DNA of 35,727 nt from the NCBI GenBank assembly GCA_045544655.1, contig JAZPZL010000051.1, positions 1 through 35,727 of the forward strand. The letters are read 5' to 3'. This document shows positions 2,174 through 29,125 of this stretch, piece by piece. The stretch's first letter is position 1. The number at the start of each line of letters is the position of its first letter. A program made the position numbers and the translations under genes. The notes beneath the pieces are model-generated. The model was not told the origin of the DNA. It searched no databases and was given only the letters and a program-made list of their open reading frames with translations. Source of the DNA: Eubacteriales bacterium. Lineage in GTDB: Bacteria > Bacillota > Clostridia > Oscillospirales > SIG627.

Positions 2174-2255
2174 AAAAAACTCCTTCGCTGTTTTCTATAT
2201 CTATCATATCATAGCTCTCTTTTTTTTGCAAGAAAAAAAGGGAGCTTTTTTAAGT

Positions 2256-2290
2256 TGTCATTGCGTGTCAGTACTCCTTTCGTGTAGAAT
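2256..2290 (+). promoter_or_regulatory. promoter-like element, copy A of a shared 35-nt motif (TGTCA-N5-TGTCA ... TTTCGTgTAGAAT)
   Basis: tgtcattgcgtgtcagtactcctttcgtgtagaat. Readable as -35 TTGCGT, 18-nt spacer, TG-extended -10 TAGAAT. It ends 29 nt before the portal ATG and is 29/35 identical to 27238-27272. Confidence 0.5.
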
Positions 2291-2319: not shown

Positions 2320-3897
2320 ATGAAACAAACCAAACAGGAATTTCTCACGGAGGATTTTAAACTCTTGGAAAAGGGCAGGGAATACAATCGCGCCATTTCC
2401 CTTTACGATACGGTAAACCGCAACGAGCGCTTTTACCGCGGGGATCAGTGGCACGGTGTTGAAAAAGGAGATCTGCCCACGCCGGTCTTTAATCTCTTCA
2501 AGCGAGTGATCAACTACTTCATTTCCACCATTATGAGCCAAAAGATCTCGGTGCATTTTGCGGCGGAAGGAACGGAGATCTTTCACGATAAGGAAAAGCG
2601 CCTTCGTATGGAGGAGGCATGTAGACTTCTTACCCGATACGCCAATTACCGATTTGATCGGGATAAGGTGGATGATCTTCTGAATCGCGGTCTTCTGGAT
2701 GCGGCGGTGACGGGAGATATGTTTCTTTACGTGTACTGGGATCCGGAAAGAAAGACGGCGCAGGGCTTCAAGGGAGATTTTGTGACCACGCTGGTGGACA
2801 GTACTCAGGTCTTTTTCGGTGACGTAAACACCCCCGAGGTGGAATCGCAGCCCTACATCCTTTTGACGGGAAGAGAATTGGTATCCAAATTGCGCCGCGA
2901 GGCACTTGCAGGCGGCGCCACGGAGGAAGAGGCGGCGAAGATCGTCCCCGATGGAGATACGGAGAATCAAAGCGGTGATTTCGGAAAAAAGGAGCTGACG
3001 GATACCAAGGCAAGCTACGTGATTTGTATGTACAAAAAGGACGGTACCGTCCGCTTCCGTAAAAGCTGCAGAGAAACCGTGGTGGTGCCGGAGCGAGATA
3101 CGGGACTTTCCCTTTATCCCTTGGTTCTGATGAACTGGGAGCGGGTGAAAAACTCTTATCACGGGCAGGCGGCGGCGACGAACCTGGTGGAAAACCAGCT
3201 TTACATCAACAAGGCCTTTGCCATGGTGATGAAGCATATGATGGACGTTTCCTTTTCAAAGGTGATCTATAACGCAAATATCATCGATGAATGGACGGGC
3301 GACATTGGTGAGGCGATCGCGGTGAACGGGCCTGTAGAACACGCCGCCGACCGCCTGGACCCCGGAAGCTTGCAGGCAGGCTTTCTGGACGTGATCCAGA
3401 TGACCATTGGGATCACCAAGGAGCTGATGGGAGCCACCGATGCGGCGCTTGGCAACGTAGCGCCCGACAATACAAGCGCCATTATCGCTCTGCAGCAAAG
3501 CTCCGCCGTACCGCTGGAAATGCAGAGAAGAGCGCTCTATACGGCGGTAGAGCGCTTGGGGATGATCTGGCTGGATTTCATTCTGGAATTTTACGATGAA
3601 TCGAGAATGATGCTTTTCCGAGAAAAAGGTGAGCTGCTCGGCGGGAATATTTCTCCTCGTGAAATGAAAAACGTGTTGTTCTCCTGTACGACTCAGGCAG
3701 GCGCTTCCAGCCATTGGAGCGAAATTGCACAGATCACCACGCTGGATCATTTGCTTTCCTCGGGAAACATACGCTTCTCTCAGTATCTGGAGCGGATTCC
3801 CGACGGATATATTCCTGAGCGTGAGGAGCTTTTGGAAGAGGTAAAGGAAGAAGAAAGCAGACTCGCATCTCAAACCGATTTTCCGGCAAACGCCTGA
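2320..3897 (+). CDS. putative phage portal protein
   Basis: 525 aa, with SD aaggagg. First gene of a head module, immediately before scaffold-like and capsid-like genes. N-terminal RFYRGDQW-type motif resembles portal families. Size fits. No search was run. Confidence 0.6.
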   Translation: MKQTKQEFLTEDFKLLEKGREYNRAISLYDTVNRNERFYRGDQWHGVEKGDLPTPVFNLFKRVINYFISTIMSQKISVHFAAEGTEIFHDKEKRLRMEEACRLLTRYANYRFDRDKVDDLLNRGLLDAAVTGDMFLYVYWDPERKTAQGFKGDFVTTLVDSTQVFFGDVNTPEVESQPYILLTGRELVSKLRREALAGGATEEEAAKIVPDGDTENQSGDFGKKELTDTKASYVICMYKKDGTVRFRKSCRETVVVPERDTGLSLYPLVLMNWERVKNSYHGQAAATNLVENQLYINKAFAMVMKHMMDVSFSKVIYNANIIDEWTGDIGEAIAVNGPVEHAADRLDPGSLQAGFLDVIQMTIGITKELMGATDAALGNVAPDNTSAIIALQQSSAVPLEMQRRALYTAVERLGMIWLDFILEFYDESRMMLFREKGELLGGNISPREMKNVLFSCTTQAGASSHWSEIAQITTLDHLLSSGNIRFSQYLERIPDGYIPEREELLEEVKEEESRLASQTDFPANA

Positions 3898-3925
3898 AAA
3901 TAAATCAAAACAAAGGAGGAAAACC

Positions 3926-4348
3926 ATGAAAAAGAAAAAGGAAAAGGAAGTTCTTTCGGAAGAAAAGCTTCCCGAAGAGATCACCTCCGTTCAGGAGGAA
4001 GGCGCGGAGGCGCCTGACGCGGCAGAATTGATGGAGGAGGATATCGCACTCTTTCGCAGTCTGTTCCCCGAGGTGAAAGGAGAGGACATTCCTCAGGAGG
4101 TCTGGGACCGAGTGGAGGCGGGGGAAAGCCTTGCCGCAAGCTACGCCCTTTTTGCGGTGCGAAAGTTCCGTGAAGAGGAGAAGATCTCCCGTATCAACGA
4201 GGAAAACGGAAAAAAGGCACCGCCCCCCGTTGAGGGAGGCTCTGCCGATGGCGATTACTTTTCACCGGAGGCGGTGAAGAATATGAGCCGCAGCGAAATT
4301 CGCAAACACTACGACAAAATTTTATCTTCCATGGAAAAATGGAACTGA
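3926..4348 (+). CDS. putative scaffolding protein (acidic, helical, 140 aa)
   Basis: Sits between the portal-like and capsid-like genes. Very E/K-rich, low-complexity N-terminus. SD aaaggagg. Confidence 0.45.
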   Translation: MKKKKEKEVLSEEKLPEEITSVQEEGAEAPDAAELMEEDIALFRSLFPEVKGEDIPQEVWDRVEAGESLAASYALFAVRKFREEEKISRINEENGKKAPPPVEGGSADGDYFSPEAVKNMSRSEIRKHYDKILSSMEKWN

Positions 4349-4368
4349 AAAAGAAAGGATGAACGATT

Positions 4369-5205
4369 ATGGCTATTCAGAATTTTATTCCCACACTTTG
4401 GAGTGAGACCCTTTACACGGAGCTGGAAAAGGATTACGTCGGCGTAAAGCTTTGCTCTCGCGACTTCGAAGGCGAGATCCGCGGCGAGGGTGACCGTGTT
4501 AAAATTTGCGGGGTAGGACCCGTTACTGTATTCGACTATCACAAGAATCAGGATATGCCCGCCGCCGAGGTGCTTTCCGACACGGAGAGAACGCTGGTTA
4601 TCGATCAGGCAAAGGGCTTCAATTTCTTCCTGGATTCCATTGATCTGGCTCAGTCCAAGAAGGGCTTGATGCAGGCGGCGATGAAGGAGGCGTCCGGCGC
4701 CCTTTCCGACGTGGCTGATCGCTACATCTACTCCCTTACCGATGAAAACGTGGCGGAGCTTGAAAATGCTTCCGCTACCAGCACCAATATCATCAGCACC
4801 ATTGCCGAGGCGAGAAAAATGCTGATGGAGAACAACGTTCCCAACTCTGCCAAGGTATCTCTGGAGGTTCCCCCTGCCATTGAGCAGAAGCTGGTGCTTG
4901 CCAAGGTTCTGCGCTCCACCGACAACGTAGAGGCTTTGGGCAGAGGCTACATCGGCTCCTTTATGGGCTTTGATATTTACGTGACCAACAACATCACCCC
5001 TTCTGCCGACGGCTCTTACCGCTGTATTGCCAGAACCGCCCGTGCCATCGCTTTTGCGGAGCAGGTCTCTGCGGTGAAGGCGTATGAGCCCGAGCTTCGT
5101 CACGGCGACGCGGTGAAGGGACTGCATTTGTACGGCGCCAAGATCGTCTACCCCAAGGAAATGGTATTTCTGAACCTGACCCCCGGGGAAGAAGAAATGA
5201 TCTGA
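4369..5205 (+). CDS. putative major capsid protein (HK97-fold, P22-coat-like small capsid family)
   Basis: 278 aa. N-terminus MAIQNFIPTLWSE...VGV...RDFEGEI..GD.VKI matches the pattern I recall for roughly 280-300-aa clostridial phage capsid proteins. Position after the scaffold gene fits. Confidence 0.7.
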   Translation: MAIQNFIPTLWSETLYTELEKDYVGVKLCSRDFEGEIRGEGDRVKICGVGPVTVFDYHKNQDMPAAEVLSDTERTLVIDQAKGFNFFLDSIDLAQSKKGLMQAAMKEASGALSDVADRYIYSLTDENVAELENASATSTNIISTIAEARKMLMENNVPNSAKVSLEVPPAIEQKLVLAKVLRSTDNVEALGRGYIGSFMGFDIYVTNNITPSADGSYRCIARTARAIAFAEQVSAVKAYEPELRHGDAVKGLHLYGAKIVYPKEMVFLNLTPGEEEMI

Positions 5206-5236
5206 CCCGTTTTGCATCAGAAAATGGAGGAAGGAT

Positions 5237-5620
5237 ATGAAACGCGCTGAAGAACTGTATCACAGAAGTCTTGCCCTGATCGGAGAAATCCCCGGGGCGG
5301 AAAATCAAATTTTCAGGGAGCGTGCGGTTCCGCTGATGAACGTGCTCCTGTCTCAGCTTTACGAGCTGGATATTGCTTTGCGTGGCGGGAAGCTTTGCCC
5401 CGGCGGGATCATTCCTCAGGTCTCGCATCTGGAGGAAACGCTTCCCTTCAGCGAAGCCATCCTTTACACGGTGCTTCCCTTGGGGCTGGCGGGGCTTCTT
5501 TTGATGGAGGAGGAAGCGGAGCGGGGACGCTTCTTTCTCCAGCTTTATCACACCGAGGTGGAGATCCTGCGTGACCGATGCAAGCGTGGGGTCCGCCACA
5601 AGATCAGAAGGAGCGTGTAG
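5237..5620 (+). CDS. hypothetical protein, possible head-completion/adaptor protein
   Basis: 127 aa, with SD ggaggaagg, immediately after the capsid gene. Assigned by position only. Confidence 0.3.
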   Translation: MKRAEELYHRSLALIGEIPGAENQIFRERAVPLMNVLLSQLYELDIALRGGKLCPGGIIPQVSHLEETLPFSEAILYTVLPLGLAGLLLMEEEAERGRFFLQLYHTEVEILRDRCKRGVRHKIRRSV

Positions 5621-5623
5621 CGT

Positions 5624-7327
5624 ATGGCGAAGGATTTTACCCTTGAATTGGAGAGCTTCGGCGGTTTGAAGCTCTCTGCGGATAATACCGACGAGCTTGC
5701 CGTGGGAGAGGGCGCAGAGCTGATCAATTTCCGCATTACCGATGCCAAAAAGCTGAAGCGACGGGAGGGGTATTTCCGCGTTTTTGATGCGCCTTCCGCA
5801 TTGAGGGGGATCTTCTGCGCTTCCGTGAACGGCACTCCCGCGTATCTTGCACTTTGCGGAAAGCACCTTTACGCTTCCCGAGAGGGCTTTGACCGATTGG
5901 AGATGCTGGAAACGGAGGTAGGGGGAGAGGGGAAGGCGTTCTTTTTCCCCTATCACTCCGAGCTCTATCTTTTGACGGGAGAGAATATTTATCGCTACGA
6001 TGGAAAAAGCCTGTCGGAGATCGAGCCCTACGTTCCCGTGATTATGATCTGTACTCCGCCCGGGAAAAGCGGAACGGTATACGAGGATGTCAATCTTCTG
6101 ACCCGAAAGGTGCGCCAGCGCTTGTCTCCCGACGGGATCGGTACGGAGTTTCCTTTGCCGGTGGAAAACATCAAAAGTCTTGACTGGGTAAAGCTTTACG
6201 GAACGGATATGCGGGAGGACAGCTATTGGTTTGATATCGACGATCATTGCCTGAAATTCGTAGGTGCGCCCAGATCCGGTGTGGACAGCATTGAGGTCCA
6301 GTACGAGCTTGTCACCGAGGATGCTTCCGACCGCATCAAAAAATGCCGTTTCGCCACAGCCTTTGGCGGTGCCAGCGATACCCGCGTATTTCTGTACGGC
6401 AATCCCGACAGCCCCGCCGTGCGCTACCATAGCGGTATCGTGGACGGAAAGCCTTCCTTCACCTACTTCCCCGAAACTGCCTTTTCCCTTGTGGGAACGG
6501 GCGAACCCATTACCGCCATTTGCCGTCATTACGACCGCCAATTGATCTTTACCACGGGCAACGCCTACTATTCCTATCTGGAATATATGACGGGATCGGA
6601 GGGGAGGCTGATCGCAGGCTTCCCCGTTCTTCCTATGAATGAAGAGAGAGGCTGTGTTGCCTTGGGTCAGGCAATTCTGGTGAAAAATACCCCCGTTACC
6701 ATTGCCGAGGACGGTTTGTTTCAATGGATCTCCACCAATATACGAGATGAGAGAAACGCAGAAAATCTATCCGATCCCATCGATCAAGCCTTGCAAAAGG
6801 AGTCGCTTGAGCAAGCGATCCTGTTCAATCGCAAGGAAAAATCGGAGCTGTATTTATGCGTAGGTGAGAATCTGTACGTTTACAATTACCGTTTGAAGCT
6901 GTTCTATCGGTATAAGGTGCCGACCATTCTCGGCTTTTGCCAAGGGGATCAATTGTATTTTTACAATGAAGAGGGCATTTTTGCCGTGGGAGGAAATACG
7001 GATGACGGGCAAAGGATCTATGCGGTATGGAAATCAAAGCTGATGGATTTTTCCCACAAGACCCGTGCAAAAAAGCTGTTCGGGACTACGATGATCGCCA
7101 AAGGGGGAGAGGGAAGCGAATTGCAGATCTCCTTGAGAAATGAAAACGACACGGAAATGCTTACGAAGCGGGTACACTTTTCCGGAAAAAGGGAGGGGGA
7201 GCGCATCGAACTTCACACCCCCAAAAGGCGATTCGGGGCAATTGAGATCATTCTTGAGACGGACAGTGAGGAAAGCGTTCACGTGCTTTCCCTTCACTTC
7301 AGGGGAAGGATCACGGATGCAGAATAG
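5624..7327 (+). CDS. hypothetical virion-associated protein with repeated beta-propeller-like blades
   Basis: 567 aa, 3 nt after the previous stop. Recurrent G..LY.Y-type segments: HLYASREG, ELYLLTGENIYRYDG, GNAYYSYLEY, ELYLCVGENLYVYNY, DQLYFYNEEGIFAVGG. Confidence 0.35.
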   Translation: MAKDFTLELESFGGLKLSADNTDELAVGEGAELINFRITDAKKLKRREGYFRVFDAPSALRGIFCASVNGTPAYLALCGKHLYASREGFDRLEMLETEVGGEGKAFFFPYHSELYLLTGENIYRYDGKSLSEIEPYVPVIMICTPPGKSGTVYEDVNLLTRKVRQRLSPDGIGTEFPLPVENIKSLDWVKLYGTDMREDSYWFDIDDHCLKFVGAPRSGVDSIEVQYELVTEDASDRIKKCRFATAFGGASDTRVFLYGNPDSPAVRYHSGIVDGKPSFTYFPETAFSLVGTGEPITAICRHYDRQLIFTTGNAYYSYLEYMTGSEGRLIAGFPVLPMNEERGCVALGQAILVKNTPVTIAEDGLFQWISTNIRDERNAENLSDPIDQALQKESLEQAILFNRKEKSELYLCVGENLYVYNYRLKLFYRYKVPTILGFCQGDQLYFYNEEGIFAVGGNTDDGQRIYAVWKSKLMDFSHKTRAKKLFGTTMIAKGGEGSELQISLRNENDTEMLTKRVHFSGKREGERIELHTPKRRFGAIEIILETDSEESVHVLSLHFRGRITDAE

Positions 7328-7341
7328 GAAAGGAGAAGAAG

Positions 7342-8112
7342 ATGTCACAGACAGATACCATCAAGGCGTATTTGAAGCGACTGGAGGATGGGGCGGCAGA
7401 GATCCGCTCCCGATACAAAAATCTTGCCGCCGCCAGTGATGCCGAGTATCGCGCTAGGATCTCCCGTATGGATGCAGATTACAAGGATGCGGTCAGCGCC
7501 GCATCTGCCCAAGCCCAGATCCATCTGAAAAACAATCTGGAGAAAATGGCGGATGCGGGCTACGTCCGCTCCGGCGAGACGGTACAGGCAACCATTGCGG
7601 CAGGCGCAGACCGAGCGAAGATGCTCTCCTCTTTGAGAGGCGATTATACCCAGGAAAAACAAGCGGTGGAGAACGAGATGTCCCGCGCAAGGGATGGGAT
7701 TTTGCTGGAGGGAGAGAAGGAGGCGGCGGAATATGAAAACCTCGCTGCCGAGACCTTGCTTGCCCAGCAAAATGCCGATCGGGAGTTTGAAGCCGCGCAG
7801 AAACAGCGGGCGTTTGAAAACGAGCTGAAAAAGCAGTCCCTGGCTCAGTCGAAGGCGGAATTTGAATACAAGGTCTCCCAAGAGAAAAAAGAGAAGTCCG
7901 AGGAGGGGATCGTCCCCGAAAAGACGCCTTACGAATACGTAGAGGAGATCGTAAAGCAAAACAGCAGGTACAATAAGAAAAAGAAGTACACGGTGGTGGA
8001 TCGCAAGGCGATCCTGCTGGCGATCTCAGCGGTCGTGAAGGATACCCGCCTGTCCTACAAGTACCGATATGAAATGTACCTTTACGGAAAGAGTATGGGG
8101 TACCTTCAGTAA
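7342..8112 (+). CDS. hypothetical coiled-coil protein (A/E/K/Q-rich)
   Basis: 256 aa, with SD ggaaaggag. Last gene before a strong terminator. Composition is typical of internal virion or assembly proteins, but no motif was recognised. Confidence 0.3.
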   Translation: MSQTDTIKAYLKRLEDGAAEIRSRYKNLAAASDAEYRARISRMDADYKDAVSAASAQAQIHLKNNLEKMADAGYVRSGETVQATIAAGADRAKMLSSLRGDYTQEKQAVENEMSRARDGILLEGEKEAAEYENLAAETLLAQQNADREFEAAQKQRAFENELKKQSLAQSKAEFEYKVSQEKKEKSEEGIVPEKTPYEYVEEIVKQNSRYNKKKKYTVVDRKAILLAISAVVKDTRLSYKYRYEMYLYGKSMGYLQ

Positions 8113-8116
8113 AACG

Positions 8117-8143
8117 AAAAAAGAGCCGAACGGCTCTTTTTTT
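8117..8143 (+). terminator. intrinsic terminator of the head operon
   Basis: Sequence aaaaaAGAGCCgaacGGCTCTtttttt; a GC stem flanked by an A-run and a 6-T run. Confidence 0.8.
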
Positions 8144-8195
8144 GTAAACGGAGTTATTCAAATCAAAAGGAAATTTGGATCAGGGGAGTTCATTT

Positions 8196-8238
8196 TACTA
8201 TTGTTTGATAGTAAAACGAATACTATTGTTTGATAGTA
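8196..8238. promoter_or_regulatory. two tandem palindromic operators (TACTAT-N6-ATAGTA), an 18-bp perfect direct repeat
   Basis: tactattgtttgatagta occurs at 8196-8213 and again at 8221-8238, 25 bp start to start. Each copy is an inverted repeat. A -10-like TATACT at 8241-8246 follows the second copy. Confidence 0.6.
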
Positions 8239-8265
8239 CGTATACTTTCTTTTGAGGTGAGTAGT

Positions 8266-8475
8266 ATGTATTATCCCAGATTGAAGGATCTTCGCGAAGA
8301 CCGCGACCTGGTGCAAAAGGAGGTTGCGGCACTCCTTGGGATCGACCAAAGGGTGTATAGCAATTATGAAAGGGGCAAGCGGGAAATTCCTACGCGTTAC
8401 GTCGTACAATTGGCAAGGTTTTACCAAACGTCAACGGACTATATTTTAGGCTTGACCAACGATCCTGATAAGTAA
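8266..8475 (+). CDS. XRE-family helix-turn-helix transcriptional regulator
   Basis: MYYPRLKDLREDRDLVQKEVAALLGIDQRVYSNYERGKREIP is a classic Cro/C1-type HTH. ATG at 8266 has SD gaggtg 6 nt upstream. The listed TTG start at 8230 lies inside the operator. Confidence 0.85.
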   Translation: MYYPRLKDLREDRDLVQKEVAALLGIDQRVYSNYERGKREIPTRYVVQLARFYQTSTDYILGLTNDPDK

Positions 8476-8491
8476 ATTGCCGCGAAAATTG

Positions 8492-8519
8492 TTGATTTTT
8501 GCTTTTTTCGGTGTAAAAT
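8492..8519 (+). promoter_or_regulatory. candidate sigma-A promoter for the sigma-factor operon
   Basis: TTGATT (8492-8497), 16-nt spacer, TAAAAT (8514-8519). Confidence 0.35.
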
Positions 8520-8636
8520 AGGTTTAGAACCGACGTACGAGTGTCGAAACGAATGAAAATATGAGGAAGAAAGTGGGTCGTGTATTCATTTTCTTTTTTC
8601 TATTGTTGTATATTTGTAGAGGAAAAACAAGAGGCT

Positions 8637-9230
8637 ATGCTGAATATCAATTTTATACTTACATACTTGGATGAAGAAGCGGATCAAAAGCTTTTGGAGG
8701 ATATCTTTTACGCCTATTCCAAGCAAATGGTAAGTCTTGCCATGACGTATCTGAAAAATAACGAGGATGCCGAGGACGCGGTGGGAACCGTATTCGAAAG
8801 AATCGCTTCCCGCAATTTTGACGTGGTACGAAGCATCAAAAACGATTGTGATATGCGTAACTATTTGTTGAAGGCGACGAAGAATACTTGTCTGAATATG
8901 CTCGGACAAAAGAAAATGACCGTATCCTTTGAACAAATTTCAGAATACGGCTACGTAGAGAAGGGAATGTGTTCGGACGATTCCTTTTTTGAAACGATCT
9001 GCAACAAAATGGACTATGAAGCGGTTCTGAAGGCAATCGGTTCTTTAAATGAAAAGTACCGCGATGCGCTTTATTATCATTTTGTGATGGAGATGACCGT
9101 TTCCGAGGTAGCCAAGCTTATGTTTCAATCCGTATCTGCAACGAAACAACAGCTTGTCCGCGGAAAGAAGATGCTTTTGGCTTTGTTATTAAAAGCGGGA
9201 GAGGAGAACGATGGCAATCAAAAGAAATGA
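8637..9230 (+). CDS. sigma-70 family (ECF-like) RNA polymerase sigma factor
   Basis: Region 2-like EDAEDAVGTVFERI...YLLKATKNTCLNML and region 4 HTH YRDALYYHFVMEMTVSEVAKLM. ATG at 8637 has a purine-rich SD (gaggaaaaacaagagg). The listed GTG 8580 extension reads as noncoding (FFYCCIF). Confidence 0.8.
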   Translation: MLNINFILTYLDEEADQKLLEDIFYAYSKQMVSLAMTYLKNNEDAEDAVGTVFERIASRNFDVVRSIKNDCDMRNYLLKATKNTCLNMLGQKKMTVSFEQISEYGYVEKGMCSDDSFFETICNKMDYEAVLKAIGSLNEKYRDALYYHFVMEMTVSEVAKLMFQSVSATKQQLVRGKKMLLALLLKAGEENDGNQKK

Positions 9231-9876
9231 GTTCCTTGAAGCCCTGCGCCGGGTGGTATCCGCCGAGTTTGAGCATATCCCGAAAACCGAAGAGGAGATC
9301 GACTACACGTTTTCACAGCGTTTTATGAAGCGGATGCTTCGGCTGTTCCGCAATCGGAAGAAGCTGTATTGGAAATTCGTAAATACCGGGGCAAAGCGTG
9401 TTGCGGTGATCCTTGTTGCCGCGGCGCTCGTCTTTGCTACGGCTTGCAGCTTTAAGCCCATCCGCGAGCCCATTATGCGCTTCATTACCGAGATCTACGA
9501 GACCTTCACCGCTTACTTCTTCGAGGGGGACACGGTAGGCGTCATCGAAAAGGAATACGCCCTGGAGGAGCCGCCCGAGGGATTTGTGGAAGTGGAACGG
9601 ACCGTTGGTGAGAGATTCATAACCACCGTTTACGAAAACAGCTCCGGTGATACCATCACCATAGTACAAATGCCAACGGATGAAATTCAATTGCTTCTTG
9701 ATCGAGAAATGGAATCTTCTGAAACAGAAATTGTAAACGGTACTGAGGTAGTTTTCTATGACTTGGGAACAAGAAAGCAAATGATGTGGATCAAGGATCA
9801 TTATTATTTTGACGTAGTATCAACGGGCGACGTTGATATGGAAATTTTGAAGAAGATCGTTGCTGATCTGAAATAA
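9211..9876 (+). CDS. putative anti-sigma factor, DUF4367-type single-pass membrane protein
   Basis: Overlaps the sigma gene by 20 nt. One TM segment (VAVILVAAALVFATA). Extracytoplasmic domain carries the PEGF...TTVYENSSGDTITIVQ pattern typical of DUF4367. Confidence 0.65.
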   Translation: MAIKRNEFLEALRRVVSAEFEHIPKTEEEIDYTFSQRFMKRMLRLFRNRKKLYWKFVNTGAKRVAVILVAAALVFATACSFKPIREPIMRFITEIYETFTAYFFEGDTVGVIEKEYALEEPPEGFVEVERTVGERFITTVYENSSGDTITIVQMPTDEIQLLLDREMESSETEIVNGTEVVFYDLGTRKQMMWIKDHYYFDVVSTGDVDMEILKKIVADLK

Positions 9877-9884
9877 TGCTCAGG

Positions 9885-9919
9885 GAGCCTTCCCCACGGG
9901 GGAAGGCTCTCGCTTTTTT
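9885..9919. terminator. intrinsic terminator shared by convergent genes
   Basis: GAGCCTTCCCC-acg-GGGGAAGGCTC followed by tcgcTTTTTT. The stop of the minus-strand gene at 9918 abuts it. Confidence 0.7.
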
Positions 9920-10355
9920 AATAGGAATCGGTTCCCTCATAGTCCAGAACGTCTGCGGCGCCACCGGAGCCGTAGATCTTATATTGTACGGTGACCCGAT
10001 AGGTGCCGGAGGAGGAAAGTTGGTAGGAGCGCTCGTAGATGTGTTGATCTTCATAAAAGGTATCCACCCACTCGTCGTTGGTGGTGCCGATGTCCACCCG
10101 GGACCAGAAAATGCCCAGGAAGCGTTTTTCCACGTAGGTGGTGATCACTGCTTTGGTGGTAACGCCGGGAACTCCAACGTATTTGTATGCAACGGTCAGC
10201 TTGCCGCTGCTGCTGATGCCCATCGTCGTTGTAGTGGAAATCGTATTATTCAGGCGAGGCTGAATCTCGGCGGCGTTTGCCACCAGCGCAACGGGGGTGA
10301 TCAGAAAGCAGATCGCCAGGGTGAGAGTGATGAGTTTTTTTGCGAGTTTTTTCAT
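9918..10355 (-). CDS. small secreted beta-rich protein, unknown function
   Basis: Signal peptide MKKLAKKLITLTLAICFLITPVALVANA-AE. SD aaaggagaaag. 145 aa, rich in T/S/Y/V. Confidence 0.6.
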   Translation of the reverse strand: MKKLAKKLITLTLAICFLITPVALVANAAEIQPRLNNTISTTTTMGISSSGKLTVAYKYVGVPGVTTKAVITTYVEKRFLGIFWSRVDIGTTNDEWVDTFYEDQHIYERSYQLSSSGTYRVTVQYKIYGSGGAADVLDYEGTDSY

Positions 10356-10474
10356 TTTTTCTTTCTCCTTTTTTTGAATTTTTTTCGGAAGAATTTTCCT
10401 TCCGCATCATACAACAAAAAAGGGGAGAAAAGGGTTACAATTTTTTTTAATTTTTTGCATTTTTTCCAAAAAAA

Positions 10475-10708
10475 TCAGTCCGTCCCCAAAAAATCGTCAA
10501 GAACCTCCCGAAAATGGATGAGGGAGAGTCCGCCCTCGTTGCAAAGAAATGCGAATTTCTCTGCTTTTGCCCGATCGCAAAACAGATCGGGAAAGGACAG
10601 CGCCTCCTCCCCCTTTTGAGAAACGAGGTCGATGCCGAAGGTGAGGCGGCGTTCGTGAGATTCATCGAAAACGGCGTCTTGACGAACTTGATAAATAAAA
10701 CGTGACAT
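10475..10708 (-). CDS. hypothetical acidic 77-aa protein
   Basis: Starts 4 nt after the upstream XRE stop, so probably translationally coupled. SD gaagga. No motif recognised. Confidence 0.5.
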   Translation of the reverse strand: MSRFIYQVRQDAVFDESHERRLTFGIDLVSQKGEEALSFPDLFCDRAKAEKFAFLCNEGGLSLIHFREVLDDFLGTD

Positions 10709-10712
10709 AGCA

Positions 10713-10907
10713 TTATCCTTCTTCCATGGGCTTTTTCAGAAAGTAGTCAACGGAAACATCCGTCGCATTGGAAATACTTACCAGAGTCTCCAGATTCGGT
10801 CGGTATCTTCCCCGTTCAATATTGCTGATGGTGTCTTTGGAGAGATTCGTTATTTCGCTGAATGCTTCCTGAGAGAGGTGAAGCCTTGTTTTTCGCAAAG
10901 TATACAT
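10713..10907 (-). CDS. XRE-family HTH transcriptional regulator (short form)
   Basis: MYTLRKTRLHLSQEAFSEITNLSKDTISNIERGRYRPNLETL is an HTH. The listed 135-aa form (to 11120) would run through the dpaB terminator at 11046-11079, so the internal ATG at 10907 is preferred. Confidence 0.7.
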   Translation of the reverse strand: MYTLRKTRLHLSQEAFSEITNLSKDTISNIERGRYRPNLETLVSISNATDVSVDYFLKKPMEEG

Positions 10908-11045
10908 ATTTTCCGCAATGTATTTCGTATTATATAGATCTGACACGGTTCCCCCTTGAAAGACATTATACGACCGCAGTTTTGTCAATGCCACGGAAGA
11001 ACTTCCGTATTTTTCCACGTTTTCGTTGAAAGGGATTTTTCTTAC

Positions 11046-11079
11046 ATAAAAAATTCCGCATACGAGTGCGTATGCGGAA
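11046..11079 (-). terminator. intrinsic terminator downstream of dpaB
   Basis: 11-bp perfect stem ttccgcatacg/cgtatgcggaa with loop agtg. On the minus strand it is followed by TTTTTT (A-run 11048-11053 on the + strand). Confidence 0.75.
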
Positions 11080-11209
11080 CGACTTTCACAAAAAAAGACA
11101 GTCTTCTTTCCATTCAACAAATAAAACGGCGGAAGGGGTTACTTGCTTTTTGAATTTTTCCGGGGAAAAGGTTTTTGCCGACGGATGGGGGGAAACGAAG
11201 GCAGGGGAT

Positions 11210-11776
11210 TTATAAAAAGACGGGTTGGAGCTGTTTGCCCTTCAACGCTTCGGAAACGGCATCGGGAACCAGGGAAAAATCGCACACCAGGGAGGAGGGC
11301 TTTTCCCGCGGAGCATCCTGGCGCATGGGGACGAAAAAGGTGTCTTTTCTGTCCGCAAGGAGAGCCAGACTTTTGGCGGAGCCGGAAAGGGCGTCGTTGG
11401 TGGAGAGAGCGACGAGCAGCTTTCCTCCCGTTCTTCGGTGAGATTTTGCCGCCATGGTCACGCAGGTATCGGTGATGCCCAGCGCCATTTTGGACAAGGT
11501 ATTCCCCGTGCAGGGGCAAACGACCAAAAGATCAAGCAGCTTTTTCGGTCCGATGGGCTCAGTGTCGGTAATGCTCGTCAGAGGAGGTCGTCCGCAGATC
11601 GCTTCCAATCGGTGCAAAACCTCTTCTTTTTGAAAAAAGCGGGTGTCGGTGGTTGCTACCCGTTCGGAAACAATGGGGATCAAATGATATTGCTCTCTCA
11701 GGGACTCCATCACGCGGAAGGTCTTTTCCAGGGAACAGAAGGAGCCGGTGAGGGCAAAGCCTAGGGTCGGTTTCAT
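11210..11776 (-). CDS. dpaB: dipicolinate synthase subunit B (flavoprotein family)
   Basis: GFALTGSFCS...IPIVS...VVCPCTGNTLSKMALGITD...LVALSTNDAL is the SpoVFB pattern. Overlaps dpaA by 4 nt. Confidence 0.85.
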   Translation of the reverse strand: MKPTLGFALTGSFCSLEKTFRVMESLREQYHLIPIVSERVATTDTRFFQKEEVLHRLEAICGRPPLTSITDTEPIGPKKLLDLLVVCPCTGNTLSKMALGITDTCVTMAAKSHRRTGGKLLVALSTNDALSGSAKSLALLADRKDTFFVPMRQDAPREKPSSLVCDFSLVPDAVSEALKGKQLQPVFL

Positions 11777-12549
11777 AATATACTCCTTTTTATGGAAAGG
11801 GCGCGGGTCACTTCATCCCAGATGGCATCAGCTTCCGAAGCGGGTGCGTATTTTCCGGGAAGCCCGTGCAGGGGAGTGAAACGGATGCATAAGCTTTCCG
11901 CTTGTCGGGCATCAATCCCCGAATCACCGCTTGCCACCTGAAAGAAGAAGCTTCCCTTCTGCATCGTTGAGAGAAAATCGGAAGAAAAAATGGGATCGGG
12001 TACGGTGTTGACAATTCCGTCAAACATTCCAAGACCCTTGATCGGAGCGGGAAAAATATTGAAGCCGTCTTGCTCCGCGAGGGCTTGTCCACGCTCTCTC
12101 GACCATACCCACACCTCACATCCGCACAGCCATAACAGACGGGCGATGGCTCTGCCGCAGTTGCCGTATCCGTAAACGAGCAGACACAGCTCGTCCAGTC
12201 TTCGGTCGGTTTTGGCAATGATCTCCGCCAGAGCGCCCTCGGCGGTATGCTGTGCGTTTTTTAAAAGGTACCGTTTTTCTTCCAGAAGAAAGGTGATGGA
12301 TAGTTTTTTTTCCTTTGCCAAACGCTTTACCTTTTCAGTGCCTTTTCCCGCGAAGACGAGGCTATGCGCGGGAAGGGTCTTCAAGGCGGCGAGAAGCTCC
12401 TTTTCACCCATGCCAAGGGGAAAGAAAAAGACGCCCTTTTCCTCGGGGGGCGCTTTGTCGTAAGTAAAAACTTCATACCCGGCTGACGCGGCTTTTTCTG
12501 CCAGATGCATAAAGCGGGGATCACGGGTTTTCGGTAGGATGAATTTCAT
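11773..12549 (-). CDS. dpaA: dipicolinate synthase subunit A
   Basis: Rossmann motif VYGYGNCGRAIARLL. Directly upstream of, and overlapping, dpaB. ATG at 12549 is preceded by the strong SD aaaggaggaaacgcg. The listed start at 12588 lacks an SD. Confidence 0.8.
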   Translation of the reverse strand: MKFILPKTRDPRFMHLAEKAASAGYEVFTYDKAPPEEKGVFFFPLGMGEKELLAALKTLPAHSLVFAGKGTEKVKRLAKEKKLSITFLLEEKRYLLKNAQHTAEGALAEIIAKTDRRLDELCLLVYGYGNCGRAIARLLWLCGCEVWVWSRERGQALAEQDGFNIFPAPIKGLGMFDGIVNTVPDPIFSSDFLSTMQKGSFFFQVASGDSGIDARQAESLCIRFTPLHGLPGKYAPASEADAIWDEVTRALSIKRSIL

Positions 12550-12576
12550 CGCGTTTCCTCCTTTGAATCCACACTT

Positions 12577-12603
12577 TATTTTATGCAAAGTATCTATCTT
12601 TGT
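12577..12603 (-). promoter_or_regulatory. candidate sigma-K-type (mother-cell) promoter of dpaAB
   Basis: Minus strand reads AC-16 nt-CATAAAATA, which matches the AC / CATAnnnTA consensus. It ends about 28 nt upstream of the dpaA ATG. Confidence 0.4.
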
Positions 12604-12701: not shown

Positions 12702-14039
12702 ATGGTAAAAGAAAAAAGCGGCTTTTCCGTTGGCTATGCCCGTCTTGCCATCAATCCCCCCGCAGGCATCGGTCTGGGAGGCTTTGGCAATACCAACAGC
12801 CGTTTGAGTGAAACGGTGCTGGACGATCTTTGCGTGACCTGCGTAGCTTTGAACGACGGAGAACAGACGGTTTTGATGTATACGGTGGACTTCCTTGGGG
12901 TCTCACTGAACAATTACAAGATCATTTCCGCTTGGGTGGAGGAGAATCTTTCCATTCCCGCGGAGAACGTGTTTATTACGGCAACCCACAACCATTCCGC
13001 GCCTCAGGTGCGGGACGGATCCACCTCGGTCATTCCTTATATGCCCGTCTTTTACGAGGGAATGGGGGAGGTGGCACGCCTTGCGGTTGCGGATCTTTCC
13101 GAGGCGGAGCTTTTCATCGGCTCTTCCCGCACGGAGCATCTCAATTACGTGCGTCGCTACCTCCGCGAGGACGGTAGCTTCCATGGAGTGGGATGGTTCA
13201 CCCGAAACAAATCTCCCATTGCCCGCCACGAAAGTGACGCGGACGATCTGATGCAGGTGCTTCGCTTCGTGCGCAAGGGGAAAAAGGACGTGGTGATGGT
13301 CAACTGGCAATGCCACGTAACCACGACCAGCGGCTTGAAGCGTACCGACGTTTCCGCAGACTGGGTAGGTGCATTCCGCGAGGAAGCGGAGAGTGCTTTG
13401 GACGTGCATTTTGCCTATTATCAGGGAGCTTGCGGAAACCTGGTACCCAATTCCTATTTGCCCCGGGAGATCAGCAACAGCGATTATCACAAGCACGGCA
13501 AGGATCTGACGGAGACTTTGAAAAAGGCTTTGGAGGATTTAAAGCCCGTCGAGCCTGCCAAATTCCGTATCGTGCATTACAACCACTACGGTTATTTTCA
13601 GACGGATACCGAGGGGAAGGATCTGGGACAGGCCAGGGAGATCTGCGATGCCTTCGATCGGGGAGATACGGATGCGGTTCGGGATCTGTGCCTGGAATAC
13701 GGCTTCCATTCCAACTACCACGCAAAAGCCATTCTCGGCAGAAGCACGATGCCTAAAGACGCGGGAAAGGACATTCAGATGGCCGCCCTTTCCATGGGAC
13801 AGGTGGGAATCGTTTTCGCTCCTTACGAGATGTACGATACCAACGGAATGCAGATCAAGGCCCGTTCTCCCTTTGAAATGACGCTGATCTGCGGCTATAC
13901 CAACAATGCCTTCGGCTATATCCCATCCAAGCTGGGATTCCAAAACGGGGGATACGAGGTGGATGCCTGTACCTTCGCCGCAGGCACGGGAGAAATTCTG
14001 GTAGAGGAATATCTCAGACTTTTGAATGAGATCAAATAA
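12702..14039 (+). CDS. neutral/alkaline ceramidase N-terminal-domain-like hydrolase, cytoplasmic paralog
   Basis: GYARLAINPPAGIGLGGFGN...LCVTCVALNDGEQTVLMYTVDFLGVS...ITATHNHSAPQ resembles the neutral ceramidase N-domain pattern. No signal peptide. Confidence 0.6.
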   Translation: MVKEKSGFSVGYARLAINPPAGIGLGGFGNTNSRLSETVLDDLCVTCVALNDGEQTVLMYTVDFLGVSLNNYKIISAWVEENLSIPAENVFITATHNHSAPQVRDGSTSVIPYMPVFYEGMGEVARLAVADLSEAELFIGSSRTEHLNYVRRYLREDGSFHGVGWFTRNKSPIARHESDADDLMQVLRFVRKGKKDVVMVNWQCHVTTTSGLKRTDVSADWVGAFREEAESALDVHFAYYQGACGNLVPNSYLPREISNSDYHKHGKDLTETLKKALEDLKPVEPAKFRIVHYNHYGYFQTDTEGKDLGQAREICDAFDRGDTDAVRDLCLEYGFHSNYHAKAILGRSTMPKDAGKDIQMAALSMGQVGIVFAPYEMYDTNGMQIKARSPFEMTLICGYTNNAFGYIPSKLGFQNGGYEVDACTFAAGTGEILVEEYLRLLNEIK

Positions 14040-14042
14040 AAA

Positions 14043-15521
14043 ATGAAACGGATTTTGTTTTTAACATTGGCGTTTCTGATGCTTCTGACCTCATTTTCCT
14101 CCTGCGGCTCCTCTTCGTTGGCGTCCGAGACTACGGGTGAAGACAAGACCGAGGCGGCAGAAACCAAAACGGAAGATACCAAGGAAAAGCGGGATCCTAC
14201 CGGCTTTGCGGCGGGGTTTGCCCGCGTGGAGATCAATCCCACGTCCTCGGTGGGGATGGCAGGCTACGGCAATACGGAGTTTCGCCGTTCCACTGTGATT
14301 GAGGATGATCTGACCGTATCCTGCACTGCCGTTTCCGATGGGGAGAACACTGCGTTGCTCTTCTCCGTGGACGTGATCGGTCTTTCGGCACAAAACTGCA
14401 ATCAAATTTACAAGCAGCTGGAAAAGGCTTTGGGAGTCAGGTCCGAATTCGTGGTGATCAACGCGACCCACTGCCATTCCGGTCCCGACGTTGCAAGCAC
14501 CACCGACGATTCCATTGCCAATTATCTGCGCATTTTTTATCCCGCATTCGTGAAGGCGGCAAAGGATGCCGTGGCGGATCTGGACAAGTGCGTGATGAAG
14601 ATGGGAAGAAGCAAAACCGAGAATCTGAACTACGTGCGCCGTTGCTTTAAGGAGGACGGAAGCCTGGTTGCGGACTGTGTGATCAATCTCAGCAAGTCGC
14701 CCGTCGTTCGGCACGAGACTGACGCGGATAACCAAATGCAGCTTTTGATGTTCGACCGTGAGAACGGCAAGGACATTCTTTTGATGAACTGGCAATGCCA
14801 CGTGACTGCCGCCGGCGGCTTGAAAAAGACCAAGATTACCCCTGATTTTGTGGGGGCTTTGCGGGATAAGGTGGAGAATGAGGCGGGCGTTCACTTTGCA
14901 TACCATCAGGGAGCTGCCGCCAATATCGAGCCAAACAGCTATATTGAGTCCGAGCCGGATCATCGGGACTACAAGGATCACGGCAAGCTGATCGCCGAGG
15001 TTGCCCTTGGAGCGCTTAAAAATATGGAAGCGGTGCCGAGCGGCAAGGTTCGCGCGGTGAAAAAGACCGTAAGCCTTGCCCACGACCTGGACGTATCCAA
15101 ATACGATCTTTCCGAAGCACAGCAGATCGTGGATCTGAAAAACGCTGACGAATTTGATCGGGCGAAGAATCTTTGCATCGAGTACGGGTACAATTCTCCG
15201 TACCACGCAGGAGCCGTCGTAAACAAAAGCCGTCGGACCGAAACCGGCTCTACTATGGATATTTCAGCCCTTGCCATCGGTGAGATCGGCTTTGCCGTGG
15301 CACCTTATGAAATGTTCGATACCAACGGAATGCAGATCAAGGAGAGATCTCCTTATAAGATGACCTTCGTCTGCGCGTATTCCGGCGGAAGATACGGCTA
15401 TATTCCGTCCTCTATTGCCTGGGATGCAGGCGGTTACGAGGTGGATACTTGCAAATACGTCAAGGGTACCGGTGAATTGCTGGCGGATGAATTTACGGGA
15501 CTTTTGAATCAAATCAAATAA
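14043..15521 (+). CDS. ceramidase-like hydrolase, lipoprotein paralog 1
   Basis: Lipobox LLTSFSS-C. Paralogous to 12702..14039 and 15536..17014 (INATHCHSGP, NWQCHVT, GGYEVDTCKY). 492 aa. Confidence 0.6.
   Translation: MKRILFLTLAFLMLLTSFSSCGSSSLASETTGEDKTEAAETKTEDTKEKRDPTGFAAGFARVEINPTSSVGMAGYGNTEFRRSTVIEDDLTVSCTAVSDGENTALLFSVDVIGLSAQNCNQIYKQLEKALGVRSEFVVINATHCHSGPDVASTTDDSIANYLRIFYPAFVKAAKDAVADLDKCVMKMGRSKTENLNYVRRCFKEDGSLVADCVINLSKSPVVRHETDADNQMQLLMFDRENGKDILLMNWQCHVTAAGGLKKTKITPDFVGALRDKVENEAGVHFAYHQGAAANIEPNSYIESEPDHRDYKDHGKLIAEVALGALKNMEAVPSGKVRAVKKTVSLAHDLDVSKYDLSEAQQIVDLKNADEFDRAKNLCIEYGYNSPYHAGAVVNKSRRTETGSTMDISALAIGEIGFAVAPYEMFDTNGMQIKERSPYKMTFVCAYSGGRYGYIPSSIAWDAGGYEVDTCKYVKGTGELLADEFTGLLNQIK
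14078..14175 (+). repeat. near-identical 98-nt tract, copy 1 (signal peptide/linker of lipoprotein paralog 1)
   Basis: Four mismatches in 98 nt against 15571-15668, at a constant offset of 1493 nt. Confidence 0.8.
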
Positions 15522-15535
15522 GAAAGGAAAAAGAT

Positions 15536-17014
15536 ATGAAACGAATTTTATTTTTTGCTCTGGCATGCTTGATGCTCCTGACCTCATTTTCCTCCTGCGG
15601 CTCCTCTTCGTTGGTGTCCGAGACTACGGGGGAAGACAAGACCGAGGCGACAGAAACCAAAACGGAAGCTCCTAAAGAGAAGCGGGATCCTACCGGATTT
15701 TGCGCAGGCTATTCCCGCACGGTGATCAATCCTACGAGCACCGTTGGTATGGGTGGCTACGGCAATACCGAATTCCGCCGTTCTACCGGCGTTGCCAGTG
15801 ATATTACCGCGGCCTGTACTGCCGTTTCCGACGGTGAAAATACCGCGCTGTTTTTCTCCATCGACGTTTTGGGCATTGGTTATAAAAACGTAGATAGCAT
15901 TTACAGACAGGTGGAAAAGGCTCTTGGCATCAAGCCGGAATTCATTACCATTTCCGCCACCCACTCCCATTCCTCTCCCGCAATCAGCGACGTGGAGGAC
16001 GAGTCGGTTGCCAATTATCTGAGAATTTTTTATCCTGCGGTTTTGAAGGTTGCCAAGGAGGCGGTTGCCGATCTTGACAAATGCGAAATGAAGATCGGTC
16101 GCACCACGACCACGGATCTCAGCTACGTGCGCCGTTATTTCCGCGAGGACGGAACCTTCTACGGAACCAACTACGTCTCCGACAGCAAATCTCCCGTTGT
16201 CCGTCACGAGACCGAGGTGGATAACCAAATGCAGCTTTTGATGTTTGACCGCGTGAACGGCAAGGACATTCTGATGATGAACTGGCAGTGCCACGTGACC
16301 ACTGCAGGCGGCAGAAACAATACCATGCTTTCCGCGGACTGGGTGGGTGCTATGCGCGACAAGATCGAGAAGGATGCAGGCGTACTCTTTACCTATCATC
16401 AGGGCGGCGCGGGCAACGTAGTGCCCAACAGCTTTATCAGCACCGAGCCCAGCAATGCCGATTACAACGCACACGGCAGAAAGCTTGCCGACGTTGCTCT
16501 GGCGGCAATTCCTGAAATGGAAAGCGTTTCTACCGGTAAGATCCGTGCAGTTGCCAAGACCGTGACTTGCCCTCACGATCTGGACGTTTCCATGTACGAT
16601 CTGCAGAAGGCGCAGCTCATCGCCGATCCCTACCGCGCAGGAAATTACGACAAGGCAAAGAGTCTTTGTCTGGAATACGGCTTCAACTCTCCTTACCACG
16701 CCAACGCGGTGGTGAATAAGAGCAAGAGGACCGAGGCAAGCTCTACGATGGAGCTTCACGCCGTTGCCATCGGTGAGATCGGCTTTGCCGTAGCGCCCTA
16801 CGAAATGTTTGATACCAACGGACAGCAGATCAAGGCGAAATCTCCCTATACCATGACCTTTGTTTGCGCCTATTCCAACGGCTCCTACGGTTATATTCCC
16901 TCCGAGATTGCCTGGCCCAACGGCGGCTACGAGGTGGATACCTGCAAATACGCCAAGGGAACCGGTGAAATGCTTGCTGACGAGCTGGTTGGTATGCTGA
17001 CGGAAATCAAATAA
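15536..17014 (+). CDS. ceramidase-like hydrolase, lipoprotein paralog 2
   Basis: Same lipobox and the same length (492 aa) as the preceding gene. ISATHSHSSP, NWQCHVT, GGYEVDTCKY. SD aaaggaaaaag. Confidence 0.6.
   Translation: MKRILFFALACLMLLTSFSSCGSSSLVSETTGEDKTEATETKTEAPKEKRDPTGFCAGYSRTVINPTSTVGMGGYGNTEFRRSTGVASDITAACTAVSDGENTALFFSIDVLGIGYKNVDSIYRQVEKALGIKPEFITISATHSHSSPAISDVEDESVANYLRIFYPAVLKVAKEAVADLDKCEMKIGRTTTTDLSYVRRYFREDGTFYGTNYVSDSKSPVVRHETEVDNQMQLLMFDRVNGKDILMMNWQCHVTTAGGRNNTMLSADWVGAMRDKIEKDAGVLFTYHQGGAGNVVPNSFISTEPSNADYNAHGRKLADVALAAIPEMESVSTGKIRAVAKTVTCPHDLDVSMYDLQKAQLIADPYRAGNYDKAKSLCLEYGFNSPYHANAVVNKSKRTEASSTMELHAVAIGEIGFAVAPYEMFDTNGQQIKAKSPYTMTFVCAYSNGSYGYIPSEIAWPNGGYEVDTCKYAKGTGEMLADELVGMLTEIK
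15571..15668 (+). repeat. near-identical 98-nt tract, copy 2 (signal peptide/linker of lipoprotein paralog 2)
   Basis: See 14078-14175. The rest of the two genes is visibly much more diverged at nucleotide level. Confidence 0.8.
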
Positions 17015-17867: not shown

Positions 17868-17976
17868 AAAATCCCTCCTGCCCAAGCATACCACGAAAAA
17901 GCGAATTTGTCCATATAAATATGAGATTTTGACCTTGAAAAGAAGAAAAGCTTCATATACAATTCTTTTGAGAGGA

Positions 17977-27196: not shown

Positions 27197-27226
27197 ATCC
27201 GAAGCGAATACGCTTCCGATTTTTTT
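27197..27226 (+). terminator. intrinsic terminator after the HAD genes
   Basis: atccgaagcg-aata-cgcttccgat (one mismatch) followed by TTTTTT. Confidence 0.6.
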
Positions 27227-27237: not shown

Positions 27238-27272
27238 TGTCATTGCGTGTCACGGCTTCTTTCGTCTATAAT
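27238..27272 (+). promoter_or_regulatory. promoter-like element, copy B of the shared 35-nt motif
   Basis: tgtcattgcgtgtcacggcttctttcgtctataat. Readable as -35 TTGCGT, 18-nt spacer, -10 TATAAT. It ends 27 nt before the terS GTG. Confidence 0.5.
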
Positions 27273-27299: not shown

Positions 27300-27689
27300 G
27301 TGAAAAAAATGACTGAGGACTTGGCGAAAAAGCGAATTTGCGCCTACTTCGTCTCCCGCAGGGTAGAGAAGCGGGATGCAGAGGGGAACGTTTTGGTGAA
27401 CAAAAGCGGTGAGGTCTTGTATGAAGAAAGACCCTGCACCGTGACGGGCCTTGCCCTGGCGCTGGGCTTTTCCGATCGGGAGGCGATTTTCGGCATCAAA
27501 AACAAAAAAATAAAAGTGCTCGTGGATCGAGCACTTTTGAAAATTGAAGAGGATGCGGAGGAAAAGCTCTTTTGCAAGGACACCTTCCACGGAGCAAAGC
27601 TGTTTTTGGAAACCAATTACAAGCGTTGGCAGGGAGAAGAGACTCAGGAGATCGCCGGACTTGGCGTTTGCTCCCAATGGGCGGAATAG
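27300..27689 (+). CDS. terS: phage terminase small subunit
   Basis: ...RPCTVTGLALALGFSDREAIF...DRALLKIEEDAEEKLF...GAKLFLETNY.RW matches the small-terminase (gp3-like) pattern. GTG 27300 lies 8 nt after SD aaaggag; ATG 27309 is the alternative. Confidence 0.8.
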   Translation: MKKMTEDLAKKRICAYFVSRRVEKRDAEGNVLVNKSGEVLYEERPCTVTGLALALGFSDREAIFGIKNKKIKVLVDRALLKIEEDAEEKLFCKDTFHGAKLFLETNYKRWQGEETQEIAGLGVCSQWAE

Positions 27690-28292: not shown

Positions 28293-28301
28293 TGATAGCG
28301 T

Positions 28302-28949: not shown

Positions 28950-28964
28950 AACAAACTCCTTAAG

Positions 28965-28998
28965 AAAAAATTCGCACAGGACGGAAGTCCCGTGCGAA
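28965..28998 (-). terminator. riboswitch expression-platform terminator
   Basis: Minus strand reads GCACGGGAC-ttcc-GTCCTGTGC (one G-U) followed by GAATTTTTT, between the aptamer and the thiT SD. Confidence 0.7.
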
Positions 28999-29019
28999 CG
29001 CGAATCTGGTTCTCATAAA

Positions 29020-29100
29020 AACTCCCTACGCCGGTATTATCCATCTCAGGTTGGAGGGTTCGCGGTCTCCCGCATCTCAGCCGTTTCAACAGCACCCCTG
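29020..29100 (-). promoter_or_regulatory. TPP (THI-box) riboswitch aptamer
   Basis: Minus strand reads caGGGGTGCtgttgaaacgGCTGAGAtgcgggagaccgcgaACCCtccAACCTGAgatGGATAATACCgGCGTAGGGAgt. All conserved THI-box blocks are present. Confidence 0.9.
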
Positions 29101-29125
29101 TTTTTCCGCTCATGTGCGTGACATT

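Follow-up and report, generated by a model that had tools for sequence, protein, structure and literature searches.

A conserved promoter box ahead of dispersed phage-derived head and terminase genes in gut Clostridia, and its likely kinship with phage late promoters

Two regulatory arrangements that bear on the locus described here are already known: the phage late promoter controlled by an activator of the Ltr superfamily, and the gene transfer agent (GTA) with dispersed loci under one control element. Among the latter, RcGTA has its dispersed loci under the activator GafA. Tandem direct repeats in a promoter are also familiar from the Pho box, in which CTGTCAT repeats with a period of 11 nt replace the -35 element and are bound by the winged-helix protein PhoB. 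CcGTA is reported to have its dispersed loci under the activator GafYZ (PMC11150451). The Ltr superfamily, which comprises RinA, ArpU, LtrA/sigma70_r4, LtrB/DUF1492 and LtrC, acts on the late terS promoters of Gram-positive phages, and the Ltr arrangement, with repeats distal to the activator gene and upstream of the packaging genes, has been shown experimentally (Quiles-Puchalt et al. 2013, PMC3753634). GTA-like packaging has been reported in Oscillospiraceae and Ruminococcaceae, including a two-operon element, FpGTA, in Faecalibacterium (Nat Commun 2026, PMC12946183); the word "promoter" does not occur in that paper.

The window, by which we mean the whole 35.7-kb stretch of DNA analysed, is a chromosomal stretch of a spore-forming Clostridia bacterium with dipicolinate synthase genes on its minus strand; its relatives are labelled Oscillospiraceae or Eubacteriales MAGs. 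Two copies of a 35-nt promoter element, copy A (TGTCATTGCGTGTCAGTACTCCTTTCGTGTAGAAT) ahead of a phage-derived head operon and copy B (TGTCATTGCGTGTCACGGCTTCTTTCGTCTATAAT) ahead of the small terminase gene terS, had been pointed out in an earlier note, and their positions and letters were confirmed exactly (Table 1). The same applies to their identity (29/35), to the exact 15-mer that they have in common (TGTCATTGCGTGTCA), and to the distances of 29 nt from the end of copy A to the portal ATG (2320) and 27 nt from the end of copy B to the terS GTG (27300). This GTG is conserved in orthologues and is preceded by AAAGGAG.

Table 1. Positions of the promoter copies, phage-derived genes and neighbouring features in the window
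Feature	Position	Strand	Remarks
Terminator-like hairpin	2213..2246	.	directly upstream of copy A; 15-bp stem, then T run
Copy A promoter	2256..2290	+	core box and -10 TAGAAT (2285-2290)
Copy A core box, TGTCATTGCGTGTCAG	2256-2271	+	two TGTCA direct repeats, 10 nt apart
Copy A weak -35, TTGCGT	2261-2266	+	embedded in core box; 18-nt spacer to -10
Head operon	2320..8112	+	Pfam, PHROGs; gene order conserved in 40+ species
Portal, P22-like	2320-3897	+	head operon
Scaffold-like	3926-4348	+	head operon
Major capsid protein, 278 aa	4369-5205	+	head operon
p127	5237-5620	+	head operon
Virion structural protein	5624-7327	+	head operon
Coiled-coil p256	7342-8112	+	head operon
Symmetric terminator hairpin	8117..8142	.	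closes head operon
Dipicolinate synthase genes	11210-12588	-	
Terminator of upstream HAD-like gene	27201..27216	+	directly before copy B
Copy B promoter	27238..27272	+	core box 27238-27253; -10 TATAAT 27267-27272
terS, small terminase, 129 aa	27300..27689	+	GTG start; PF16677, phrog_606
TPP riboswitch of tpk-thiT	29109-29006	-	
thiT sigma-A promoter	29154-29126	-	with riboswitch, directly against terL start
terL, large terminase, 455 aa	29162..30529	+	phrog_979, phrog_2

The similarity between the two copies exceeds chance. With up to three mismatches the common 15-mer has 3 matches in the window against 0.52 expected and, a block of paralogous genes aside, A and B are the sole same-strand pair of 35-nt sequences in the window with at least 29 matches; in 40 dinucleotide-preserving shuffles of the window the best pair reached 24–28 matches and never 29. 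The halves of the element, searched in the window with two mismatches allowed, behave differently: TGTCA-N5-TGTCA gave 18 matches where 17.75 are expected, which is the level of chance, and TTTCGTnTAnAAT gave 18 against a mean expectation of 10.26, with no further exact match. Apart from the copies already known, the separate halves reveal little; the information lies in the complete element alone.

Both copies have the same anatomy, in which a 16-nt box, TGTCATTGyGTGkCAs, is followed after exactly 13 nt by a good -10 hexamer (TAGAAT or TATAAT). The box overlaps a poor -35 hexamer, TTGyGT, separated from the -10 by 18 nt, and lies at about -41 to -26 from the predicted transcription start, with the TGTCA repeats on the same helix face; this start is expected some 7 nt past the -10, near 2297 in copy A and 27279 in copy B. 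A generic sigma-70 consensus scan (at least 4 of 6 matches in both hexamers, 16–18 nt spacer) called neither copy because of the -35, which matches the consensus at only 3 of 6 positions (TTGCGT in copy A), the -10 matching at 5 of 6 in copy A and 6 of 6 in copy B. The hairpin ahead of copy A would insulate its promoter from neighbouring transcription, and many orthologues also have a hairpin and T run just 5' of the box. A poor -35 together with a terminator ahead of each copy is consistent with tight factor-dependent control. A good -10 with tandem TGTCA direct repeats in the -35 region is a trait shared with the Pho box. However, the repeats here have a period of 10 nt, phosphate genes are not linked to them, and the proteins associated with the box (see below) resemble sigma region 4.

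Comparison with relatives is decisive in showing that the match is not accidental. Of the 41 orthologous loci whose portal identity is 57% or higher, 39 have a relaxed core, TG[TG]CAT-N4-nG[TG]CA, in the 400 nt upstream of portal, and the remaining two carry degenerate variants of it; the relaxed core occurs at 1 of 20 more distant portal loci, against a background of 0.0085 per 400 nt. A stricter pattern was met 46 times over 1.26 Mb of loci; in about 43 cases the portal operon follows directly. In these relatives the core reads TGTCATTGnnTGkCA and is followed, after 14 nt, by a -10 of the form TAnnnT, the distance from the 16-nt box to the -10 being always 13 nt in orthologues. Flanking intergenic DNA cannot be aligned between species, and the box is nevertheless kept. 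Moreover, six terS loci of relatives (L016, L077, L079, L080, L081 and L204) have the same box and -10. More distant lineages show three to four phased TGTCA repeats and TGTGnTAnAnT, the Gram-positive extended -10 of the housekeeping sigma. The TTTCGT that the earlier note regarded as conserved before the -10 holds within the closest clade only.

Some further occurrences of the box stand apart. In more distant domesticated lineages (L021-L039, L062, L066, L072, L075), which also show the phased TGTCA repeats, an ORF or leader of about 100 aa with a W-Q-N-I-I-S-Y-D-H-like end separates the box from the portal gene, at about 170–330 nt upstream of the latter. One relative (L030, 13794-14492) has a second box with an extra overlapping repeat before a gene for a 213-aa winged-helix DnaD-like protein, for which no counterpart was found among the other loci compared. 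The boxes in L094, L110, L202, L205, L211, L215 and L216 look like chance occurrences, inside ORFs or in unrelated contexts, and were rejected.

From a relative with 92–97% protein identity, a metagenome scan with the pattern TGTCATTGYGTGTCA-N14-TANNAT yielded one copy before terS (L204) and one before portal (L206). It also yielded a third promoter (L203), 31/35 identical to copy A, on a single 3.2-kb contig whose lineage is assigned by promoter similarity alone. Downstream of this promoter are a holin gene (phrog_608), a 135-aa ORF and a collagen-like, tail-fibre-like gene; on its other side lie a HAD phosphatase gene and a phosphodiesterase-like host gene. By analogy with FpGTA II, the system seems to have its lysis/fibre operon here; the holin and fibre-like proteins have no relatives among the compared loci or in IMG/VR. 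The earlier proposal that the dispersed genes form one regulon is supported by the conservation of box and -10 before both the head operon and terS, and by this third copy in a close relative.

The genes behind these promoters are of phage origin and have long been resident. The capsid protein has about 2000 database homologues, with identities grading down from 98%, and a scan with one genome per species gave 76 loci; two proteins of the window that were looked up by exact match had no entry. At loci with at least about 60% capsid identity the portal-scaffold-capsid-p567 order is kept, in some of them between the same host neighbours, with mbl upstream and spoVF downstream; at 40–55% identity terL lies directly upstream of portal, which is the ordinary phage order. 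The order terS, tpk-thiT, terL, queG is kept down to 62% terS identity. For terL, identities of 77–92% and conserved synteny were found in L016 and L077-L081, and terS has 73 homologues. The head operon (dN/dS 0.02–0.16), terS (0.03–0.2) and terL (0.04–0.10) evolve under purifying selection, the values over portal, capsid, p567, p256, terS and terL ranging from 0.02 to 0.2; the synonymous sites are close to saturation. Chromosomal fixation in host synteny, seen over the 76 loci in the mbl and spoVF neighbours and the terS-queG order, and purifying selection on the retained genes are both features of GTAs. Neither the long ORFs of the window nor the Pfam labels of L077-L081 include a replication, lysogeny or integration module. 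Judged from its genes, the capsid and packaging set is a long-domesticated, vertically inherited, GTA-like element: this group of gut Clostridia has kept capsid, packaging and probably lysis genes from an ancient phage. Between the head operon and spoVFB, the window also has a block (8113-11209) with genes for an XRE protein, an ECF-like sigma, a DUF4367 protein and, on the minus strand, a second XRE protein. In L001 and L016 the last head gene is directly followed by spoVFB, so this block is a lineage-specific insertion.

With RcGTA and CcGTA the element shares phage-derived head and packaging genes that are chromosomally fixed, under purifying selection, spread over several loci and provided with a common control element. 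It differs from them in its hosts, which are Firmicutes rather than Alphaproteobacteria, in its P22-like head genes, and in a control that would reside in a phage Ltr-type late promoter instead of a GafA/CtrA site. FpGTA, compared by description, is similar in its gut Clostridia lineage, its podovirus-type head genes and the division into a head/packaging operon and a distant second operon with tail-fibre and lysis genes, but FpGTA I has terS, terL, portal, scaffold and capsid in one operon (PMC12946183), whereas here host genes separate terS, terL and the head genes from one another. GTA-like elements of gut Clostridia have lately been reported as major movers of bacterial DNA, and the box would supply their hitherto missing cis-regulatory logic. 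Box plus -10 could also serve as a simple genomic marker by which every operon of such dispersed elements might be located in metagenome-assembled genomes.

The host genes between terS and terL (27689-29162) are tpk, for thiamine pyrophosphokinase, and thiT, both on the minus strand. No box of its own precedes terL; the sequence conserved before its ATG is the opposite-strand thiT-tpk promoter (TTGACA-17-TAAGAT). The stop codons of terS (27689) and tpk (27690) adjoin each other, and between terS and terL no terminator was called on the plus strand, which makes read-through from terS to terL possible. We infer that terL may be reached in this manner from copy B, across the antisense tpk-thiT genes. 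Since these lie antisense between terS and terL, activation of terS might also yield antisense RNA to the thiamine genes. The interposition of tpk-thiT is conserved to 62% terS identity, and tpk is missing in L081.

The same box is frequent in phage contigs. A scan of IMG/VR with the pattern TGTCATTGNNTGKCA-N14-TANNNT gave at least 64 unique sites; among the matches listed, most of these 64 read ATGTCATTGAATGTCA, and nearly all have AA at the two free positions, a bias that cannot arise by chance. At 43 of the 64 listed sites a same-strand DUF1492/phrog_36 ORF ends between -30 and +67 nt from the box, a count that is partly circular because the profile used to count activators was built from some of the same phage ORFs. 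Among the matches listed, these ORFs measure about 140–290 codons from stop to stop, mostly 140–185. They belong to DUF1492 or to phrog_36, "transcriptional regulator", and have a sigma-70 region-4-like C-terminus: the profile's C-terminal portion has PDB matches to region 4 of SigF and FliA (E = 5e-4 to 5e-3), and its N-terminal portion looks like a coiled coil. Their stop codon often lies inside the box, the last codons TGT CAT TGA being the box itself. Many DUF1492-type genes in the phage contigs L084-L160 end in this way in Cys-His-stop. Where the gene end is encoded by the box, the putative binding site would thus constrain the C-terminus of its own activator. The genes downstream of phage boxes encode HNH endonucleases, terS, terL or portal. 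Among the matches listed, 34 of 48 phage boxes have TG at -15/-14, positions that are unconstrained, where about 3 would be expected; the phage boxes are therefore real extended -10 promoters. No paper containing the box sequence was found in the searchable literature. For the uncharacterised late activators of the DUF1492/phrog_36 family, the box amounts to a well-defined promoter element of very wide distribution, and their binding and mechanism become directly testable.

Several traits of Ltr promoters recur here. The first packaging gene, terS, has direct repeats upstream of it both in the window and at the terS loci of relatives; in phage contigs a small DUF1492-type gene ends at the box or just before it; and one factor would be expected to turn on packaging, morphogenesis and lysis, a scope suggested by the position of the boxes before the head operon, terS and the L203 holin/fibre-like genes. 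In contrast to Ltr promoters, the promoter occurs here in triplicate, dispersed between host genes, no ltr gene adjoins it in the window, and the repeats, which overlap the -35, keep a fixed distance from the -10 instead of forming a separate upstream block.

In our view each copy is likely to be a "late" promoter that depends on an activator and came down from the ancestral phage of the element, with an Ltr-type protein as the inferred ligand of the repeats. A small protein of the Ltr superfamily (DUF1492/phrog_36), with an N-terminal coiled coil and a sigma-region-4-like HTH, would bind the TGTCA repeats through its sigma-4-like domain and recruit or complete host sigma-A RNA polymerase at the -35 position. 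It might replace or contact region 4 of sigma-A, in the manner of a class II activator or by sigma appropriation; the strictly fixed distance from box to -10 fits such action at the -35. One factor could in this way switch on particle assembly, packaging and lysis together in spite of the scattering of the operons among host genes, since one and the same box stands before the head operon, terS (with terL probably reached through it) and the holin/fibre-like operon of a close relative. The earlier note had offered two mechanisms, and a factor binding TGTCA repeats is the better one, which can now be given a name as an Ltr/DUF1492-type late activator. The location of the box at the end of DUF1492/phrog_36 genes in phages makes such a dedicated factor plausible; on the other side of the account, the window itself has no Ltr-like gene.

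This last result comes from a profile HMM run over all six-frame ORFs of the 35.7-kb window, and in the closest relatives, too, the 10 kb on either side of the head or terS loci yielded no Ltr-like gene. The genes upstream of the two copies encode an MBL-fold hydrolase (minus strand) and a HAD-like protein, and repeats immediately distal to an ltr gene, as in Ltr phages, are not encountered in the window. Over the window and 81 related loci the profile matched in L023 and L025 alone, and a protein-database profile search found just 10 homologues of these two Ltr-like proteins. Both occur in host context. The L023 gene adjoins the MTHFR gene and has a 71%-identical orthologue, likewise beside MTHFR (L300), in the same assembly as the head locus L021; in L025, L297 and L298 the Ltr-like gene is the last gene of the head operon. 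Proteins of the L023 and L025 types share an ERQ-x-YRL recognition-helix motif with the phage proteins. In the lineage of the window, the activator gene may lie at another place in the genome, or a phage may supply the activator. A stronger version of the latter, which we regard as unlikely, holds that the element has no activator of its own here and that its three operons retain the phage late-promoter box in order to fire when a DUF1492-carrying phage is induced or infects. If so, the host would answer late expression of a phage by making its own capsids, terminase and holin, and the system could be a phage-triggered GTA, an abortive-infection or interference system, or a piracy of phage parts.

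A repressor, e.g., of the XRE type, could also occupy the box as its operator on the -35 of a sigma-A-competent promoter and silence the three operons until its removal. In its favour, the -35 is overlapped by the repeats, the -10 hexamers come close to consensus, the window has XRE genes in the vicinity, and a repressor on the same repeats would leave an identical footprint of conservation. An XRE/coiled-coil gene even abuts the box in one group of phage contigs with a class-4 (phrog_38) terL (L207-L210, L213, L219), where box and -10 point away from terL and into the 3' end of this convergent gene. However, basal activity should be low anyway with a poor -35 and an 18-nt spacer, the phage box is tied to a gene of an activator family and not to a repressor gene, and the XRE genes of the window are absent from the same position in L001 and L016. 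Control by a repressor is accordingly doubtful. The suggestion that the neighbouring XRE and sigma proteins are the regulators is not supported either, the whole block that encodes them (~8113-11209) being absent at that position in the close relatives L001 and L016, which have the box.

The phage group just mentioned shows that the box is not always the head of a packaging operon, since it points away from terL there; L212 and L214 also belong to the group. Among 80 loci with relatives of the class-4 terL, 79 are without box, and almost all are without any Ltr gene. In this small phage group a GCCGAC...GTCGGC hairpin lies between the box and the 3' end of the XRE/coiled-coil gene, and on the opposite strand the terL ribosome-binding site begins some 10 nt away from the box; here the box may be an antisense switch.

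The second mechanism of the earlier note, an alternative sigma factor (ECF-type, or the product of 8580-9230) that would read TGTCA as -35 and CGTnTA as -10, has become very improbable with regard to the activator-dependent reading by sigma-A set out above. It could appeal to the sigma gene and its DUF4367 partner that follow closely on the head operon, the sigma having regions 2 and 4, to the CGT before the -10 in both window copies, and to a fixed distance from box to -10 that resembles bipartite recognition by a sigma. Nevertheless, the CGT is lost in more distant orthologues, which show TGTGnTAnAnT instead, and the spacing from TGTCA to CGT is 10 or 20 nt as compared to 16–17 nt for ECF promoters. 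The sigma and DUF4367 genes occur in the window only and are absent from all 81 related loci, including the orthologous place in L001 and L016, where the box is kept, and the phage proteins linked to the box have a region-4-like domain only. Finally, chance matches (one chance 15-mer was allowed for by the earlier estimate) or recombination/attachment sites flanking a 25-kb insertion (an exact 15-mer in direct orientation could mark attL/attR) are already refuted by comparative sequence data, as no shuffle reaches 29/35, each copy is conserved independently at its own locus (9.6 kb apart in L016, on different contigs elsewhere) and always at a fixed distance from -10 and start codon, and no integrase is found among the long ORFs translated or those scanned against Pfam and PHROGs.

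Two other features of the window deserve mention. At 12702-17014 there are three tandem paralogues of 445–492 aa with 61–80% DNA identity, two of which have signal-peptide-like N-termini; the orthologue in L079 matches Pfam Ceramidase_alk. Moreover, two genes (17929-20196 and 30530-31372; repeat family D7) have a QueG-like Fe-S motif in common, and the second of them is always located directly 3' of terL in relatives.
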